Part shown: in pieces, positions 1,832 to 42,915 of the stretch
Position numbering within the stretch: position 1 is the first letter of the stretch
Layout: the number at the start of each line of letters is the position of its first letter
Source: Escherichia coli
Lineage (GTDB): Bacteria > Pseudomonadota > Gammaproteobacteria > Enterobacterales > Enterobacteriaceae
Assembly: GCF_009931435.1 (NCBI RefSeq)
Contig: NZ_CP043414.1
DNA length: 64,000 bases
Strand: one strand, 5' to 3'
Translations under genes and position numbers: made by a program
The notes under the pieces: generated by a model
Seen by the model: only the letters and a program-made list of their open reading frames with translations
What the model was told of the DNA's origin: nothing
The model's database searches: none

Positions 1832-5515
<3,684 letters not shown>

Positions 5516-6854: not shown

Positions 6855-10754
<3,900 letters not shown>

Positions 10755-10793
10755 TTAATTCGCCCCTCGCCTTACGGAAAGGGGCGTTGGTTA

Positions 10794-25892: not shown

Positions 25893-27265
25893 CCTTGTGG
25901 GTCCTTACGCGTAATATTGACCGGAAGCCAGAGGGTGAACGTTGCACCTTTCCCCTCCTGGCTTACGACCTGAATTGTACCACCGTGTTGTTCAACAATA
26001 TTATGCACAACCGCCAGCCCCAGTCCGGTGCCTTCGGCTTTGGTGGTGAAGTACGGGGTGAAGATGGCTTCAAGCTGATCCGCCGCAATTCCCTTACCGC
26101 TGTCGGTTACGCTTATTTTAACGCCTGCGCTGCTTTCGTTGGCCGTCACGCTAATCACGCCATGCTGACCAATAGCCTGAATAGCATTGAGATAGAGATT
26201 CAACAGGACCTGAGTCAGTCGGTCCGGATCGGCCTGTATCTCCGGCAATGCGTCGTTGGCGGTAAAGCGTAATTGGATCTCCCTACTGTTTGCATCCTGG
26301 CTTACCAGTTGTAATGAGTGGTTAATCAGCGTGTTGAGATCCACCGCCTTCAAAGCAAGATGCGTTGGCTTAACCAGCTCCAGCAGCTCGCTTACCACGC
26401 GGTTTAAACGGTCGGCTTCTTTCGCCATCACCTGCGCCAATTGATGCGCTTCTCCTCCTGCTGGTGCGCGTTCGGCAAAATATTTCGCCAGCCCTTTAAT
26501 CGAGGAAAGCGGGTTACGGATTTCATGGGCGACGCCTGCGGCCAGATGTCCCAGCGCCACCAGCTTCTCTTTGCGCTTCATTTCATCCTGTAACAGCTGG
26601 CGCGAGCGAAGATAGCGGCGATACCAGAAGAATGACAACACGCTTGCCAGCAAGACCGTCGCCAGGGCGAAGAGGATAATCAGGGTGTTTCTCTGCTCAC
26701 GCTCTTCGGCACTCACAATGTTACTGGCGTCGAAAGCGATAAAAATTGCTTGTGGTGTCGCGGCATACTGCTGCATATGGCGCATCCGGTGCATTCCAGC
26801 AGCAAACATCGGTTGAAACTGGCGATAAATTTCCAGAACAGGCTCGCCGTCTGCGCTATCGATCCGCCGCCACGCTTCTTCGTCTCCCGGATGTAACTGC
26901 TGCATTTCCTGCGGGGAATAAAGCTGTTTTCCCACCATGCCGGAGTTGCTATGCATCACGATTGTTCCTTGTTCATCCGTGACCGCAAACCAACGCACTC
27001 CTGGCTGCCCAGCCATTTCTTCCAGTAAAGCCTGCTGCTGCGCATGATGCATGCGCATCCCCATACCGACGCGCGAGCCGGATTCGAGAGCGCGGATAAG
27101 TACACTGCCTTTTTCCAGCAGAGTTTGTCTGGCGGCGGCAGTCTCGCGCCCATAATCGCGAATCACGGTCACTGCAAACAACCCCACCAGTCCAACAATG
27201 ACTACGGGAAGGATCGCGCTTAACCATTTTGCTAAGGCATCTTTTGATCGCTGCATAAAACGCAT
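25889..27265 (-). CDS. zraS: Sensor histidine kinase ZraS
   Basis: 458-aa ORF with two TM segments, H-box (HEIRNPL) and HATPase domain; 4-bp overlap with zraR. Confidence 0.93.
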   Translation of the reverse strand: MRFMQRSKDALAKWLSAILPVVIVGLVGLFAVTVIRDYGRETAAARQTLLEKGSVLIRALESGSRVGMGMRMHHAQQQALLEEMAGQPGVRWFAVTDEQGTIVMHSNSGMVGKQLYSPQEMQQLHPGDEEAWRRIDSADGEPVLEIYRQFQPMFAAGMHRMRHMQQYAATPQAIFIAFDASNIVSAEEREQRNTLIILFALATVLLASVLSFFWYRRYLRSRQLLQDEMKRKEKLVALGHLAAGVAHEIRNPLSSIKGLAKYFAERAPAGGEAHQLAQVMAKEADRLNRVVSELLELVKPTHLALKAVDLNTLINHSLQLVSQDANSREIQLRFTANDALPEIQADPDRLTQVLLNLYLNAIQAIGQHGVISVTANESSAGVKISVTDSGKGIAADQLEAIFTPYFTTKAEGTGLGLAVVHNIVEQHGGTIQVVSQEGKGATFTLWLPVNITRKDPQG

Positions 27266-27295
27266 CTTCTTCTTTGCCTGTTCATCCCTTTTTGA

Positions 27296-27312
27296 CAGCA
27301 GAAATCATGCCA
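27296..27312 (-). promoter_or_regulatory. Candidate sigma54 promoter for zraSR
   Basis: Minus-strand TGGCAT-N5-CTGCT (GG/GC spacing as in -24/-12 elements) about 30 nt upstream of the zraS start. Confidence 0.45.
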
Positions 27313-27363
27313 TCTTTTATTAGCACTTACCCTGCGCTTTAACACAAAGGCTTAAGTTTCAAT

Positions 27364-27409
27364 GAGTAAAAATGACTCGCCACACACAGCAGGCGAGTCA
27401 TTTTTACTC
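27364..27409. promoter_or_regulatory. ZraR enhancer: 18-bp perfect inverted repeat between divergent zraSR and zraP
   Basis: GAGTAAAAATGACTCGCC -10 bp- GGCGAGTCATTTTTACTC. Confidence 0.7.
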
Positions 27410-27451
27410 GTTTATCATGTCATATTGCCCGTCATATCAGCGTTTCGCCGT

Positions 27452-27467
27452 TGGCACGAAAGATGCA
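27452..27467 (+). promoter_or_regulatory. Sigma54 promoter of zraP
   Basis: TGGCACGAAAGATGCA (-24 GG / -12 GC) about 40 nt upstream of the zraP ATG. Confidence 0.65.
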
Positions 27468-27502
27468 ATACCCGAAGTAAGACAACCACTGGAGGATTAA
27501 CC

Positions 27503-27922
27503 ATGAAACGGAACACGAAAATTGCCCTGGTGATGATGGCGCTTTCAGCAATGGCGATGGGATCGACATCTGCATTTGCTCACGGCGGACACGGTATGTG
27601 GCAGCAAAATGCCGCGCCTTTGACCAGCGAACAACAGACAGCGTGGCAGAAAATCCATAATGACTTTTACGCTCAAAGCAGCGCACTGCAACAGCAACTG
27701 GTGACGAAGCGTTATGAATACAATGCCCTGTTAGCCGCGAACCCACCGGATAGCAGCAAAATTAACGCGGTCGCCAAAGAGATGGAGAATTTGCGTCAGT
27801 CGTTAGATGAGTTACGGGTGAAACGAGATATTGCGATGGCTGAAGCGGGTATTCCGCGCGGTACCGGAATGGGTTACGGCGGCTGCGGTGGTGGCGGTCA
27901 TATGGGTATGGGCCACTGGTAA
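27503..27922 (+). CDS. zraP: Periplasmic zinc-binding chaperone ZraP (139 aa)
   Basis: ORF 27362..27922 trimmed to MKRNTKIALVMMALSAMAMG (signal peptide) with GGAGG SD; Gly/His/Met-rich C-terminus. Confidence 0.92.
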   Translation: MKRNTKIALVMMALSAMAMGSTSAFAHGGHGMWQQNAAPLTSEQQTAWQKIHNDFYAQSSALQQQLVTKRYEYNALLAANPPDSSKINAVAKEMENLRQSLDELRVKRDIAMAEAGIPRGTGMGYGGCGGGGHMGMGHW

Positions 27923-27923
27923 A

Positions 27924-28625
27924 TCAGAACGTTTTCTCATTGGGTTGCCAGCGACAGAAATCAGAGTTTGCCACTAACAGTAATTGCGAACCTTCGGGCG
28001 CTTCCAGCCATGCCACGCTGACATCAACAGAAGAGCGGCTCTGGCGGCGCTCGATATGCGCTATCGCCTGCGAATCTAAATCAGGTTTAATGGTTTGCCC
28101 TTCGCAGGTGGTCACGGTCTGTTCCATCGCATGCCAGCGCCCCTGGCGCAGCACGACTCTCCCCTGACGTAAGGCATCGCTAATCTGGCGGATCTGATCA
28201 GCACGATAACGGTATAAATCGATTTGGTCGTTAGAAAGCTGCTGCTTTTCCCCATCGGATTCACGTTGCATAAAGCTCAGATCGCCGCGATCGTCAAAAC
28301 GCGCGCGAATATTCACCGGCGGTTTGCTGTAAACATTGATATTGATAAGCGTGAGGTTATCGCCCTGCCAGCGATACTCTCGCGTCGTGGTATCGCCACT
28401 GCGCCACGGGCTAAACACAGCAAGCAGATGCACATTATTGCCACTGTCTTTTCGCCAGATACGTACCGCGCCCTGATCTTCAGCAAATCCACTGGCGGTA
28501 AAGGGAGGAAGTGAAGAGTTGTGACTACAGGCAGTGAGAAACAGAGCGCCCGCCAGCATCAATGATCGACGCCAGAAAGACAAAAGGGGTGAAACCACCC
28601 CTTCGTTAAAACTGTTCACTGCCAC
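27924..28625 (-). CDS. yjaH: DUF1481-type putative lipoprotein YjaH
   Basis: 233-aa ORF with lipobox-like LFLTAC near the N-terminus; immediately downstream of hupA. Confidence 0.85.
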   Translation of the reverse strand: MAVNSFNEGVVSPLLSFWRRSLMLAGALFLTACSHNSSLPPFTASGFAEDQGAVRIWRKDSGNNVHLLAVFSPWRSGDTTTREYRWQGDNLTLININVYSKPPVNIRARFDDRGDLSFMQRESDGEKQQLSNDQIDLYRYRADQIRQISDALRQGRVVLRQGRWHAMEQTVTTCEGQTIKPDLDSQAIAHIERRQSRSSVDVSVAWLEAPEGSQLLLVANSDFCRWQPNEKTF

Positions 28626-30395: not shown

Positions 30396-30404
30396 AATCG
30401 CTCC

Positions 30405-36549: not shown

Positions 36550-37320
36550 ATGTTACGTATTGCGGACAAAACGTTTGATTCACATCTGTTTACCGGCACC
36601 GGGAAATTCGCCTCTTCACAATTGATGGTGGAGGCGATCCGCGCTTCCGGCAGCCAACTGGTGACGCTGGCGATGAAACGCGTCGACTTGCGCCAGCACA
36701 ACGATGCTATCCTCGAACCGCTTATCGCGGCGGGTGTGACCCTGCTGCCGAATACTTCCGGGGCGAAAACAGCGGAAGAAGCCATTTTCGCCGCCCATCT
36801 GGCACGTGAAGCATTAGGCACAAACTGGCTAAAATTAGAGATTCACCCTGACGCCCGCTGGCTGTTGCCCGATCCCATCGAAACCCTGAAAGCCGCCGAA
36901 ACACTGGTACAACAGGGATTTGTCGTGCTGCCTTACTGCGGTGCCGATCCGGTGTTGTGCAAACGTCTGGAAGAAGTCGGCTGTGCAGCGGTGATGCCGC
37001 TCGGCGCGCCGATTGGCTCGAATCAGGGACTGGAAACCCGCGCCATGCTGGAGATTATTATCCAGCAAGCCACGGTTCCGGTGGTCGTTGATGCTGGCAT
37101 TGGCGTTCCCAGCCATGCCGCGCAGGCGCTTGAAATGGGAGCCGATGCGGTGTTAGTGAATACGGCGATTGCCGTCGCGGACGATCCCGTCAACATGGCG
37201 AAGGCATTTCGTCTGGCGGTAGACGCCGGCCTGCTGGCACGTCAGTCCGGGCCGGGCAGTCGCAGTCATTTTGCTCATGCCACTAGCCCGCTGACCGGAT
37301 TTCTGGAGGCATCGGCATGA
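36550..37320 (+). CDS. thiG: Thiazole synthase ThiG (256 aa)
   Basis: ORF 36505..37320 trimmed to [20 protein letters not shown] start. Confidence 0.95.
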
Positions 37321-38450
37321 AAACCTTCAGTGATCGCTGGCGACAACTGGACTGGGACGACATCCGCCTGCGAATCAACAGCAAAACGGCAGCTGACGTA
37401 GAGCGGGCGCTCAATGTTTCGCAACTCACTCGCGACGATATGATGGCATTGCTATCACCTGCCGCCGGTGAATACCTGGAACCACTGGCTCAACGGGCGC
37501 AGCGTCTGACCCGTCAGCGATTTGGCAACGTCGTCAGCTTCTACGTCCCGCTTTATCTTTCCAATCTTTGCGCTAACGACTGCACGTACTGCGGATTTTC
37601 CATGAGCAATCGCATCAAGCGTAAAACGCTGGATGAAGCGGATATCACCAGGGAAAGCGCCGCTATCCGGGAGATGGGCTTTGAACATCTATTGCTGGTC
37701 ACTGGTGAACATCAGGCGAAAGTGGGGATGGATTACTTTCGTCGTCATCTCCCTGTCCTGCGTGAACAGTTCTCTTCACTACAGATGGAAGTACAGCCAC
37801 TGGCGGAAGCGGAATACGCCGAGTTAAAGCAACTTGGTCTGGATGGGGTGATGGTTTATCAGGAGACATATCACGAGGCGACATACGCCCACCATCATCT
37901 GAAAGGGAAAAAACAGGACTTCTTCTGGCGGCTGGAAACGCCGGATCGGCTGGGCCGTGCGGGGATAGATAAGATAGGCCTCGGCGCGCTAATCGGCCTT
38001 TCCGACAGCTGGCGCGTTGACTGCTATATGGTTGCCGAACATTTGCTATGGCTGCAACAACATTACTGGCAAAGCCGTTACTCTGTCTCCTTCCCGCGCC
38101 TGCGCCCGTGTACTGGCGGGATTGAGCCAGCGTCGATTATGGATGAACGCCAGTTAGTGCAAACTATCTGCGCCTTCCGCCTACTTGCGCCGGAGATTGA
38201 ACTGTCACTCTCCACGCGGGAATCACCGTGGTTTCGCGATCGCGTTATTCCGCTGGCGATCAATAACGTCAGCGCCTTCTCGAAAACGCAACCTGGTGGC
38301 TATGCCGACAATCATCCGGAGCTGGAGCAATTCTCACCGCACGACGATCGCAGGCCGGAAGCCGTTGCTGCTGCATTAACTGCTCAGGGTTTGCAGCCGG
38401 TATGGAAAGACTGGGACAGCTATCTGGGACGTGCCTCGCAAAGGACATGA
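37317..38450 (+). CDS. thiH: Radical-SAM tyrosine lyase ThiH (377 aa)
   Basis: CANDCTYC radical-SAM motif; 4-bp overlap with thiG. Confidence 0.96.
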
Positions 38451-38496
38451 GACAGAATGTAAGAACGTAAATTTATTCCGAGCAGCTACGGAAGAT

Positions 38497-38533
38497 GAAA
38501 AACGCAAGGTTGTTGAAAGCGTTGCGTTTTTTT
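38497..38533 (+). terminator. Terminator of the thiCEFSGH operon (bidirectional hairpin)
   Basis: AAAAACGCAAGGTTGTTGAAAGCGTTGCGTTTTTTT about 50 nt after the thiH stop; A-run on the other side too. Confidence 0.75.
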
Positions 38534-38644
38534 ATGTTAGTACCGTCAGCAGGAATGTTGTCCAGGGCGAAAAGCTTCTTCCTCGTTTCGCCCTGCCTTT
38601 CTTAATATTTCCCATGAAGAATTTGCCCTCTGAATAACACCCAT

Positions 38645-38666
38645 AAAAAAACCCGCCGAAGCGGGT
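38645..38666 (-). terminator. rpoBC operon terminator
   Basis: Minus-strand AAAAACCCGCTTCGGCGGGTTTTTTT, 25 nt after the rpoC stop. Confidence 0.85.
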
Positions 38667-38691
38667 TTTTACGTTATTTGCGGATTAACGA

Positions 38692-41600
38692 TTACTCGTT
38701 ATCAGAACCGCCCAGACCTGCGTTCAGCAGTTCTGCCAGGCTGGCAGATGCGTCTTCTGCAGTCACCTGCGGTGCAGCCGGAGCTTCACCCGCAGCACGG
38801 CGACGCATACGATCCTGGTGGTACGCGTAACCGGTACCTGCCGGGATCAGACGACCTACGATAACGTTCTCTTTCAGGCCGCGCAGTTCGTCGCGTTTGC
38901 CCGCAACGGCTGCTTCGGTCAGCACGCGAGTGGTCTCCTGGAACGATGCCGCGGAGATGAAGGACTCGGTTGCCAGAGACGCTTTGGTGATACCCAGCAG
39001 ATCGCGGGAGTAAGTTGCACCCACTTTGCCGTTCGCTTCCAGTTCGCGGTTTGCGATCTTGACGCGAGAGTATTCAACCTGTTCGCCTTCCAGGAAGTCG
39101 GAGCTGCCCGCGTTAACGATGGTAGCTTTACGCAGCATCTGACGAACGATAACTTCGATGTGTTTATCGTTAATCTTAACGCCCTGCAGACGGTATACGT
39201 CCTGTACTTCGTTAACGATGTAACGAGTCACAGCATGAACACCACGCAGACGCAGAATGTCATGCGGCGCTTCCGGACCGTCGGAAATTACGTCACCACG
39301 TTCTACACGTTCACCTTCGAACACGTTGAGCTGACGCCATTTCGGAATCATCTCTTCGTACGGCTCGCTACCGTCTACCGGGGTGATAACCAGACGACGT
39401 TTACCTTTGGTTTCTTTACCGAAGGAAACCACACCGCTGATTTCAGCCAGGATTGCCGGCTCTTTCGGACGACGTGCTTCGAACAGGTCCGCAACGCGTG
39501 GCAGACCACCGGTGATGTCCTTGGTACCGCCAGATTCTTGCGGAATACGCGCCAGGGTGTCACCAGAGCTGATCTGTACGCCATCTTCCAGCTGAACAAT
39601 CGCTTTACCCGGCAGGAAGTACTGCGCAGGCATGTCGGTACCCGGGATCAGAACGTCGTTACCCTGAGCATCAACGATTTTCAGTGCCGGACGCAGATCT
39701 TTACCACCTGCGGTACGTTCTGCGGAATCCAGAACCACCAGCGAAGACAGACCGGTCAATTCGTCGGTCTGACGAGTAATGGTCTGGCCGTCGATCATGT
39801 CAGTAAAGCGTACAAAACCGCTTACTTCGGTGATAACCGGCATGGTGTGCGGGTCCCAGTTTGCAACGGTCTCGCCGCCAGCAACCTGTTCGCCATCGCC
39901 TTTCGCCAGTACTGCACCGTAAGGCACTTTATAGCTTTCTTTGGTACGACCGAATTCGTCGATCAATTTCAGTTCGGTGTTACGGGAAGTGATAACCAGT
40001 TTGCCGCTGGAGTTCACAACCGACTTCACGTTGCTGAGCTTGATGCTACCTTTGTTTTTCACCTGGATGCTGGATTCAGCAGCCGCACGAGATGCCGCAC
40101 CACCGATGTGGAACGTACGCATGGTCAGCTGTGTACCCGGTTCACCGATGGACTGTGCCGCGATAACACCGATTGCTTCACCTTTGTTGATGATGTGGCC
40201 ACGTGCCAGGTCACGACCGTAGCAGTGCGCACATACACCAAAGTCGGTGTCACAAGATACAACAGAACGTACTTTAACCGCGTCGACAGAGTTCTCTTCC
40301 AGCAGGTCACACCACTGTTCGTGCAGCAGCGTGTTGCGCGGAACCAGGATATCAGCAGTACCCGGTTTAAGAACGTCTTCAGCAGTTACACGACCCAGTA
40401 CGCGATCGCGCAGCGGCTCTTTAACATCACCACCCTCGATAACCGGCGTCATCATGATACCTTCATGGGTACCACAATCGTCTTCGGTTACCACCAGGTC
40501 CTGCGCAACGTCAACCAGACGACGAGTCAGGTAACCGGAGTTCGCCGTCTTCAGTGCGGTATCCGCCAGACCTTTACGAGCACCGTGGGTTGAGATGAAG
40601 TACTGGAGTACGTTCAGACCTTCACGGAAGTTCGCGGTGATTGGCGTTTCGATGATGGAGCCATCCGGCTTCGCCATCAGACCACGCATACCCGCCAGCT
40701 GACGAATCTGTGCCGCAGAACCACGCGCACCGGAGTCGGCCATCATGTAGATGCTGTTGAAGGAAACCTGCTTCTCTTCCTGACCGTCACGGTTAATAAC
40801 GGTTTCAGTTTGCAGGTTATCCATCATCGCTTTGGATACACGATCGTTCGCCGCAGCCCAGATATCGATAACTTTGTTGTAGCGTTCGCCCGCAGTTACC
40901 AGACCAGACTGGAACTGCTCCTGAATCTCAGCAACTTCAGCTTCTGCCTCGGAGATGATTTCGTGTTTCTTCTCCGGGATGACCATGTCATCGATACCAA
41001 CAGATGCACCAGAACGCGCTGCATATGCAAAGCCGGTGTACATGATCTGGTCCGCAAAAATAACGGTCGGTTTCAGACCGAGAATGCGGTAGCAGGTGTT
41101 CAGCATTTTGGAGATTGCTTTCTTACCCAGCGCCTGGTTGACGATGGAGTAAGGCAGACCTTTCGGTACAATCATCCACAGAATGGCACGGCCAACGGTC
41201 GTATCTTTCAGGCTGGTTTTCGCTACTAATTCACCGTTAGCATCTTTTTCATACTCGGTGATACGCACTTTAACGCGCGCATGCAGAGAAGCCAGACCAG
41301 AGCGATACAGACGTTCTGCTTCTTTCGGGCCAGTCAGTACCATGCCTTCGCCTTTGGCGTTAACACAGTCACGGGTCATGTAGTACAGACCCAATACAAC
41401 GTCCTGAGACGGAACGATGATTGGTTCGCCGTTCGCCGGGGACAGGATGTTGTTGGTAGACATCATCAGCGCACGCGCTTCCAGCTGGGCTTCCAGTGTC
41501 AGCGGTACGTGAACAGCCATCTGGTCACCATCGAAGTCGGCGTTATATGCCGCACAAACCAGCGGGTGCAGCTGGATAGCTTTACCTTCGATCAGTACCG

Positions 41601-42915
41601 GTTCAAATGCCTGGATACCCAGACGGTGCAGAGTCGGTGCACGGTTCAGCAGTACCGGGTGTTCGCGGATAACTTCGTCCAGGATATCCCAAACGACAGC
41701 TTCTTCGCGCTCAACCATTTTCTTCGCAGCTTTAATGGTGGTAGCAAGACCACGCAGTTCCAGCTTGCCGTAGATGAACGGTTTGAACAGTTCCAGTGCC
41801 ATTTTCTTCGGCAGACCGCACTGATGCAGACGCAGGTATGGACCTACGGTGATTACAGAACGACCGGAGTAGTCAACACGCTTACCGAGCAGGTTCTGAC
41901 GGAAACGACCCTGTTTACCTTTGATCATGTCGGCCAAAGATTTCAGAGGACGCTTGTTAGAACCGGTGATCGCACGACCGCGACGACCGTTATCCAACAG
42001 GGCGTCTACCGCTTCCTGCAGCATACGTTTTTCATTACGTACGATGATGTCCGGCGCAGCCAGATCCAGCAGACGTTTCAGACGGTTGTTACGGTTAATG
42101 ACGCGACGATACAGATCGTTCAGGTCAGAAGTCGCGAAACGACCACCATCCAGCGGAACCAGCGGACGCAGATCTGGCGGCAGTACCGGCAGAACGGTCA
42201 GGATCATCCACTCTGGTTTGTTACCAGACTGAACGAACGCTTCCAGCAGTTTGATACGCTTGGTCAGCTTCTTACGCTTAGTTTCGGAGTTGGTTTCGTT
42301 CAGCTCTTCACGCAGCTGTTCGCACTCTTGCTCCAGATCCATGCTCTTCAGCAGAGCCTGGATTGCTTCCGCACCCATTTTCGCGTCGAATTCGTCACCG
42401 AACTCTTCCAGCGCGTCCAGATACTGCTCTTCAGTCAGGATCTGCTGACGCTCCAGGTTGGTCATACCGCCTTCGATAACCACATAGGATTCGAAGTACA
42501 GTACGCGTTCGATATCGCGCAGCGGCATATCGAGCAGCAGGCCGATACGGGACGGCAGCGATTTCAGGAACCAGATGTGCGCGGTCGGGGAAGCCAGTTC
42601 GATGTGGCCCATACGCTCACGGCGTACTTTAGTCTGGGTCACTTCAACGCCGCACTTCTCACAGATGACGCCACGGTGTTTCAGGCGCTTGTACTTACCG
42701 CACAGGCACTCGTAATCTTTTACCGGCCCAAAGATACGGGCGCAGAAAAGGCCGTCACGTTCTGGTTTGAACGTACGGTAGTTGATGGTTTCCGGCTTTT
42801 TAACTTCACCGAAAGACCATGAACGGATCATGTCTGGCGAAGCCAGAGCAATTTTGATCGCATCAAACTCTTCGGTTTTAGTCTGCGCTTTCAGAAACTT
42901 TAATAAATCTTTCAC
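38692..42915 (-). CDS. rpoC: RNA polymerase beta' subunit RpoC (1407 aa)
   Basis: Full-length [36 protein letters not shown]..., NADFDGD active site. Confidence 0.99.

Follow-up and report, generated by a model that had tools for sequence, protein, structure and literature searches.

An apparently ancestral 241-bp thiH-rpoC spacer in Escherichia coli and the probable later gain of the yjaZ-sroH segment in K-12-type strains

The DNA analysed here is a 64-kb stretch of an E. coli genome (the window), in which the convergent genes thiH (plus strand, ending at 38450) and rpoC (minus strand, ending at 38692) are separated by 241 bp, the length given in an earlier note on this sequence. The features of the region are as follows, with positions numbered along the window.

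37317-38450, plus strand: thiH, the final gene of thiCEFSGH and the left border of the spacer (ORF list; RefSeq annotation of the near-identical strain 2013C-4282).
38451-38691, no strand: the thiH-rpoC spacer of 241 bp, in what appears to be its ancestral, unoccupied form (length and end-to-end alignment with outgroup loci).
About 38495-38535, plus strand: intrinsic terminator hairpin of the thi operon (RNA fold -18.5 kcal/mol, z = -2.8).
38550-38605, plus strand: an invariant stretch of 56 nt that encloses the next hairpin (six-sequence comparison).
38563-38595, plus strand: a hairpin with a 10-bp stem (RNA fold -15.0 kcal/mol, z = -3.7).
38613-38639, no strand: a 27-bp filler, CATGAAGAATTTGCCCTCTGAATAACA, the putative empty insertion site (blastn breakpoints against K-12).
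38647-38670, minus strand: the rpoC intrinsic terminator, AAAAACCCGCUUCGGCGGGUUUUUUU (terminator scan; fold -18.5 kcal/mol, z = -2.8).
38692-42915, minus strand: rpoC, the right border of the spacer (ORF list; annotation of 2013C-4282).

RNA folding with z-scores yields three significant hairpins in the spacer, whereas the earlier note had described only two terminators. Those two are about 112 bp apart, close to the previous estimate of 110 bp, and their positions are refined in the list above. The thi terminator, read directly from the sequence as AAAAACGCAAGG...CGTTGCGTTTTTTT, has an A-run on its 5′ side and a U-run on its 3′ side, as in the bidirectional type, and its stem-loop is followed by seven U, as is characteristic of intrinsic (Rho-independent) terminators. 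It was not called by a simple pattern scanner, probably because its stem is interrupted. The rpoC terminator was found by pattern scan and has 10 pairs, a 4-nt loop and a U-run. The third hairpin has a strong 10-bp stem, a 13-nt loop and a tail, CCUUUCUUAAUAUUU, that is only moderately U-rich. There are no variable sites in the surrounding stretch across six sequences from five Escherichia lineages, including K-12, whereas 34% of thiH third positions vary. Because the hairpin itself is invariant in this comparison, it offers no sites at which covariation could be assessed. The stretch may be a second thi terminator or an element of the 3′ UTR.

The corresponding spacer in K-12 MG1655 is 1,161 bp by annotation, which contradicts the possibility, raised in the earlier note, that reference genomes also have about 240 bp here. 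The gene order is rpoC, yjaZ, sroH, thiH (b3988-b3990, b4691), with rpoC ending at 4189573 and thiH at 4190735. The yjaZ gene (4189786-4190325) encodes 179 amino acids and lies 212 bp downstream of rpoC, in agreement with the gene of about 180 codons (htrC/yjaZ) that the note describes at this location. The sRNA gene sroH (4190327-4190487), on the strand opposite to yjaZ, is a second K-12 feature absent from the window, and one that had not been mentioned before. By blastn, window positions 38200-38612 align with K-12 4190985-4190573 at 94.2% identity, and positions 38640-38765, which include the rpoC terminator, align with K-12 4189625-4189500 at 100%. The two loci thus have orthologous flanks (94-100% identical), with thiH, its terminator and the conserved hairpin to one side and rpoC and its terminator to the other; they differ in that 947 bp in K-12, containing all of yjaZ and sroH together with their promoters, stand in place of 27 bp in the window. 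The G+C content of the K-12 block is 41.5%, compared with 54.9% for thiH and 53.7% for rpoC.

No mobility gene is annotated in the K-12 block, and neither an integrase, an IS element, an inverted repeat nor a target-site duplication was found at its edges, where a repeat search returned only short repeats at chance level. The filler does not significantly resemble the block at either edge. A resemblance noticed by eye between the left edge of the block and the filler of the E. ruysiae type was rejected on the basis of shuffling (p = 0.2-0.9). Two side observations concern the block within E. coli: in strain ET650 there is an IS1 inside it, and in O157:H7 strains only 93% of it is matched, in two pieces, which points to an internal deletion of roughly 70 bp.

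Searches of the window for the missing genes were negative. With K-12 YjaZ as the tblastn query against the 64 kb, the best E value was 0.39, which is no real match, and blastn with the K-12 block found nothing in the whole window. The Rfam model of sroH (RF00372) gave no match between 38000 and 39000 even at E ≤ 10; the same model scores 201 bits in K-12, against a gathering score of 80 bits. K-12 YjaZ itself scores 430 bits with NCBIfam NF007263 and carries the Pfam label PF27200.

The claim that the spacer holds no yjaZ-sized gene is borne out by the ORF list, which contains no frame of about 180 codons on either strand. There are two small frames, both noticed previously: one of 68 codons on the plus strand (38431-38637) and one of 32 codons on the minus strand (38644-38546). 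The former had been said to run through both terminators, but its end is still about 10 nt away from the rpoC terminator. It had also been proposed that a remnant at this site might encode a much shorter peptide, and either frame could in principle be expressed as a short peptide gene in place of yjaZ. In favour of this idea, the 32-codon frame is open, with its ATG kept, in all of the compact (241-bp) alleles examined. That ATG, however, adjoins the U-tract of the rpoC terminator and has no Shine-Dalgarno sequence, the variable N-terminal part of the frame undergoes non-conservative changes (ANSSWE / VEISRE / AKFLRK), and its constant part is simply the DNA of the invariant hairpin. In K-12, the frame opened by the same minus-strand ATG closes after four codons, as read from the K-12 sequence. 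The GTG start of the 68-codon frame is GCG in the outgroups described below. Neither frame resembles YjaZ, there is no sign of coding in either, and we find no yjaZ remnant at the site; a replacement peptide gene here seems to us so improbable as to be nearly negligible.

The two forms of the locus are both frequent. In a survey of 5,426 complete E. coli genomes, the compact junction was found in one piece in 1,630-1,637, including the B2 strains E2348/69 and 'clone D i2', and the K-12 block in 3,717-3,741, including K-12, BL21, O157:H7 and 042. The counts are close to complementary, and yjaZ and sroH are missing from roughly 30% of complete E. coli genomes. The polymorphism at the thiH-rpoC site is therefore ordinary and common, and earlier publications have noted it. 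The block is also present in three strains whose thi operon resembles the window's (97.5% identical), which indicates that the alleles recombine between lineages.

A question related to the absence of yjaZ is whether the gene, with or without sroH, might have been relocated to another part of this strain's genome or to its plasmids. Enterobacterial plasmids commonly carry genes of the YjaZ family, a megablast search with the K-12 block hits plasmid records of the E. coli genome collection at five places, and our search of the source genome covered the 64 kb of the window. Against relocation, YjaZ has no match in that 64 kb, and the allele counts are nearly complementary. In addition, a chimeric query consisting of 3.6 kb of the window's thi region and 150 bp of yjaZ hits just one place in the closest complete chromosomes (2017-02-2CC, 2013C-4282, WL297 and others), as opposed to two places in block-bearing strains, so that there is no yjaZ elsewhere on those chromosomes. 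The earlier statement that yjaZ is absent here holds for the window and for the chromosomes of its nearest relatives, and we consider relocation very unlikely.

The direction of the change can be addressed with outgroups. Orthologous loci were located by way of named ThiH proteins that belong to the E. coli 90% clusters, giving three locus sets (those of ThiH proteins named E. albertii, those named E. ruysiae, and those of the window's own ThiH); the species names are public protein labels and not whole-genome identifications. In all three sets the distance between thiH and rpoC is exactly 241 bp, and the spacers can be aligned from end to end. The 27-bp filler is present in the outgroups, with substitutions specific to each lineage, and the yjaZ-sroH block is absent from the orthologous site in both the E. 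albertii-named and the E. ruysiae-named loci. These loci can be regarded as real outgroups because of their identity values: they are 92-94% identical in thiH and 96-97% in rpoC to both K-12 and the window, with K-12 and 042 being 99.4% identical in rpoC.

Three other candidates were set aside as outgroups. Two ThiH proteins named E. fergusonii (P0244, P0254) are 99.2% identical to the window's ThiH, and the DNA of two P0244 loci is 99% identical to the window, compared with 93% to K-12; the loci therefore belong to the window's own lineage and do not form an independent outgroup. Either the fergusonii labels are wrong, or the thi-rpoC segment is common to E. fergusonii and the window's lineage, and true E. 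fergusonii was probably not sampled. An enterobacterium with 91% identity in ThiH protein was rejected as a near outgroup, its thiH DNA being only 81% identical, which places it in another genus. Salmonella was rejected as evidence on the filler, since its rpoC terminator differs.

The comparison indicates that the compact allele is ancestral and that yjaZ-sroH is an insertion. Two considerations lead to this reading. The 27 bp of the compact allele have no counterpart in K-12, and the difference is thus not a deletion, because a deletion cannot create them; and the compact form is ancestral because the same 241-bp spacer is found in the outgroup loci and in about 1,630 E. coli genomes. The opposite history, in which yjaZ-sroH was already present in an ancestor of Escherichia or E. 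coli and was lost in the window's lineage, like B2 and others, corresponds to the deletion entertained in the earlier note and has a published precedent. Skippington and Ragan (2012; PMC3318445) listed sroH among variable sRNAs, with 'B2 + D', ATCC 8739, S. flexneri and S. sonnei 046 lacking it, and concluded by parsimony that the ancestor had it, with losses on the 'B2 + D' branch and in three further strains. Moreover, since some strains with a window-like thi operon carry the block, local loss through allelic replacement is conceivable. That parsimony analysis, however, included no outgroup and penalised gains 2:1 over losses. Deletion must also contend with the presence in two outgroup lineages of a 241-bp spacer whose filler has diverged lineage by lineage, and with the foreign base composition and plasmid-borne relatives of the block. 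We regard it as improbable. The polymorphism is the same one that was described in 2012; the difference is that loss was deduced there without outgroups, whereas gain is deduced here from outgroup loci, and that sroH was not tied there to yjaZ or to plasmids. For the main split, the outgroup evidence favours a gain of sroH, and its published loss in B2/D-type strains would be better read as a gain in other lineages.

Our preferred interpretation, which we consider highly probable, is that the window shows the empty ancestral site and that the 947-bp yjaZ-sroH segment was gained later in K-12-type E. coli. The original gap between the convergent thiCEFSGH and rpoBC operons would have contained the thi and rpoC terminators and, between them, the conserved hairpin and 27 bp of neutral filler. 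An A+T-rich segment of 947 bp carrying yjaZ and the convergent sroH would then have entered just inside the rpoC terminator in an ancestor shared by part of E. coli, displacing about 27 bp; the same two-gene module also circulates on plasmids. Both alleles now segregate in E. coli, with homologous recombination through the conserved flanks able to swap them, and the window's lineage has the ancestral allele, which means that its genome just lacks yjaZ and sroH here. Absence from sister loci, together with atypical composition and homologues on mobile elements, is the pattern expected of horizontally acquired DNA, and the block appears to conform to it. The breakpoints, base composition, population counts, outgroup state and plasmid homologues are observations; that there was a single insertion event, its donor and its spread by recombination are inferences. 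A variant of this history is that the window's lineage could once have had the block and then regained the ancestral allele by recombination, given that strains with window-like thi genes include carriers of either allele. An implication of the gain is that K-12 is not the ancestral reference at the thiH-rpoC site, and that yjaZ and sroH are part of the accessory genome. The absence of yjaZ in this particular strain matters little by itself.

The distribution of the two genes outside this locus suggests that they form a conserved mobile module of a protein and an RNA. The YjaZ family is widespread but patchily distributed, with YjaZ-like genes on 559 plasmids. Its nearest relatives outside E. 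coli are in plasmid or mobile contexts, with neighbours such as RdgC, HigBA, UmuDC-like genes, PcfJ and a methyltransferase, and not between rpoC and thiH. In all eight contexts examined that have a homologue at least 50% identical, there is an sroH-like RNA on the opposite strand, 1-7 nt past the yjaZ stop (K-12, L002:287-988; the others, L006:4001-4693, L009:4001-4732, L010:4001-4725, L028:1492-2197, L029:1492-2188, L032:2501-3213 and L033:2501-3209). The sroH matches, in order of score, are as follows.

K-12 chromosome: 201 bits.
E. fergusonii 88-kb record: 144 bits.
Serratia conjugative plasmid: 132 bits.
Salmonella contig: 112 bits.
Klebsiella ColE1-type plasmid: 103 bits.
Enterobacterial contig: 102 bits.
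Aeromonas hydrophila chromosome: 74 bits, E = 6e-16 (gathering score 80).
Cyanobacterial contig: 70 bits, E = 9e-15 (gathering score 80).

No sroH-like RNA was found beside two more distant yjaZ homologues (29-36% identity). At the DNA level, the plasmid copies are homologous to the K-12 block only over yjaZ and sroH. An alignment of six sroH copies has long invariant motifs and compensatory changes in several stems, and in YjaZ the residues His52, Arg84, Tyr85, Arg141, His143 and Ser146 are invariant. Two ideas about SroH did not hold up: a small ORF in K-12 sroH is not conserved among the copies and was rejected as a gene, and pairing of SroH with the yjaZ leader or start is unsupported, with duplexfold z-scores of about 0 and inconsistent sites in the eight modules.

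The co-occurrence of yjaZ and sroH is an observation; a functional coupling of the two would be a further step. YjaZ had no match in PADLOC or PHROG, nor in a Pfam profile search, though precomputed PF27200 labels exist. Fold comparison gives a weak signal of similarity to RelE, HigB and CdiA, with scores below significance. As a compact pair of a protein and an RNA that is frequent on plasmids and patchy in distribution, yjaZ-sroH is similar to plasmid toxin-antitoxin and other small accessory modules. It differs from toxin-antitoxin modules in that SroH is not an antitoxin built of tandem repeats and is not antisense to the coding region, as well as in the lack of a PADLOC match. A type III toxin-antitoxin system of the ToxIN kind, in which a tandem-repeat RNA is encoded ahead of the toxin gene on the same strand, was considered and rejected, because sroH forms one structured RNA of about 160 nt and lies downstream of yjaZ in convergent orientation; by eye, the six-copy alignment contains no tandem repeats. 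A broader scenario, which we put forward tentatively and to which we give somewhat less than even chances, is that this strain lacks one ancient mobile module, and not a K-12 core gene together with a separate sRNA; in that module SroH would be the obligate partner of YjaZ, kept beside it in enterobacterial plasmids, Aeromonas and cyanobacteria alike, and YjaZ is perhaps a RelE/BECR-like nuclease controlled or served by SroH in a manner resembling toxin-antitoxin systems; the module would have been gained within E. coli, at a gap that is a recurrent landing site in the Enterobacteriaceae.

The function of yjaZ as htrC ('heat-shock protein HtrC') has been retracted by the EcoCyc curators (PMC11551758), and SroH is still uncharacterised, with only its binding to kbl confirmed, by in vitro gel shift (PMC6172242). 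In the searchable literature we found no mention of sroH together with yjaZ or htrC. The linkage of the two genes and the reversed polarity of the polymorphism are the only points here that are perhaps new to a specialist. Because the pair travels together across phyla and on plasmids, SroH would be better studied jointly with YjaZ.

In other genera, the gap between thiH and rpoC is occupied by different genes. In Salmonella, it contains a gene of the SseK/NleB effector family, which we take to be sseK1, along with small ORFs (L016:7135-9478, L017:7135-9478). In the enterobacterium with 81% identity in thiH, there are a cold-shock-domain gene and PTS IIB/IIA genes (L015:7459-9615). The Salmonella interval is like the K-12 block in that the same convergent site is filled with lineage-specific accessory cargo; it differs in that the cargo is unrelated, the sequence of the rpoC terminator is different, and neither yjaZ nor sroH is present. 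Accessory genes thus seem to have landed in this gap repeatedly.

Finally, we note several properties of the window outside the spacer. Over positions 38001-39000, the sequence agrees fully (100%) with that of E. coli strain 2013C-4282, the best RefSeq match; across the window, identity to that strain is mosaic (96-100%). Identity to K-12 is about 95-97% over non-ribosomal genes and falls to 90-92% in the zraS/zraP region (26001-28000), and in the thi region no complete E. coli genome matches above 98.5%. The low identity to K-12 and the mosaic match to 2013C-4282 suggest an E. coli-like lineage that branches deeply; taken together, the comparisons point to a lineage that is either deep-branching or heavily recombined. 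The arpA gene (6855-9041) looks like a pseudogene: it shares 99% identity with the intact arpA (2,187 bp) of 2013C-4282 but contains an early stop codon (codon 131) and an indel of 1 bp, and appears in the ORF list only as the fragments 7446-8162 and 8120-9040. Two spacers also vary in length. The one between aceK and aceA (10746-10793) is 48 bp in the window, compared with 182 bp in K-12, and between nfi and hemE (30396-30404) 2013C-4282 has about 147 bp more than the window and K-12. Both differences probably reflect the presence or absence of small repeat elements.
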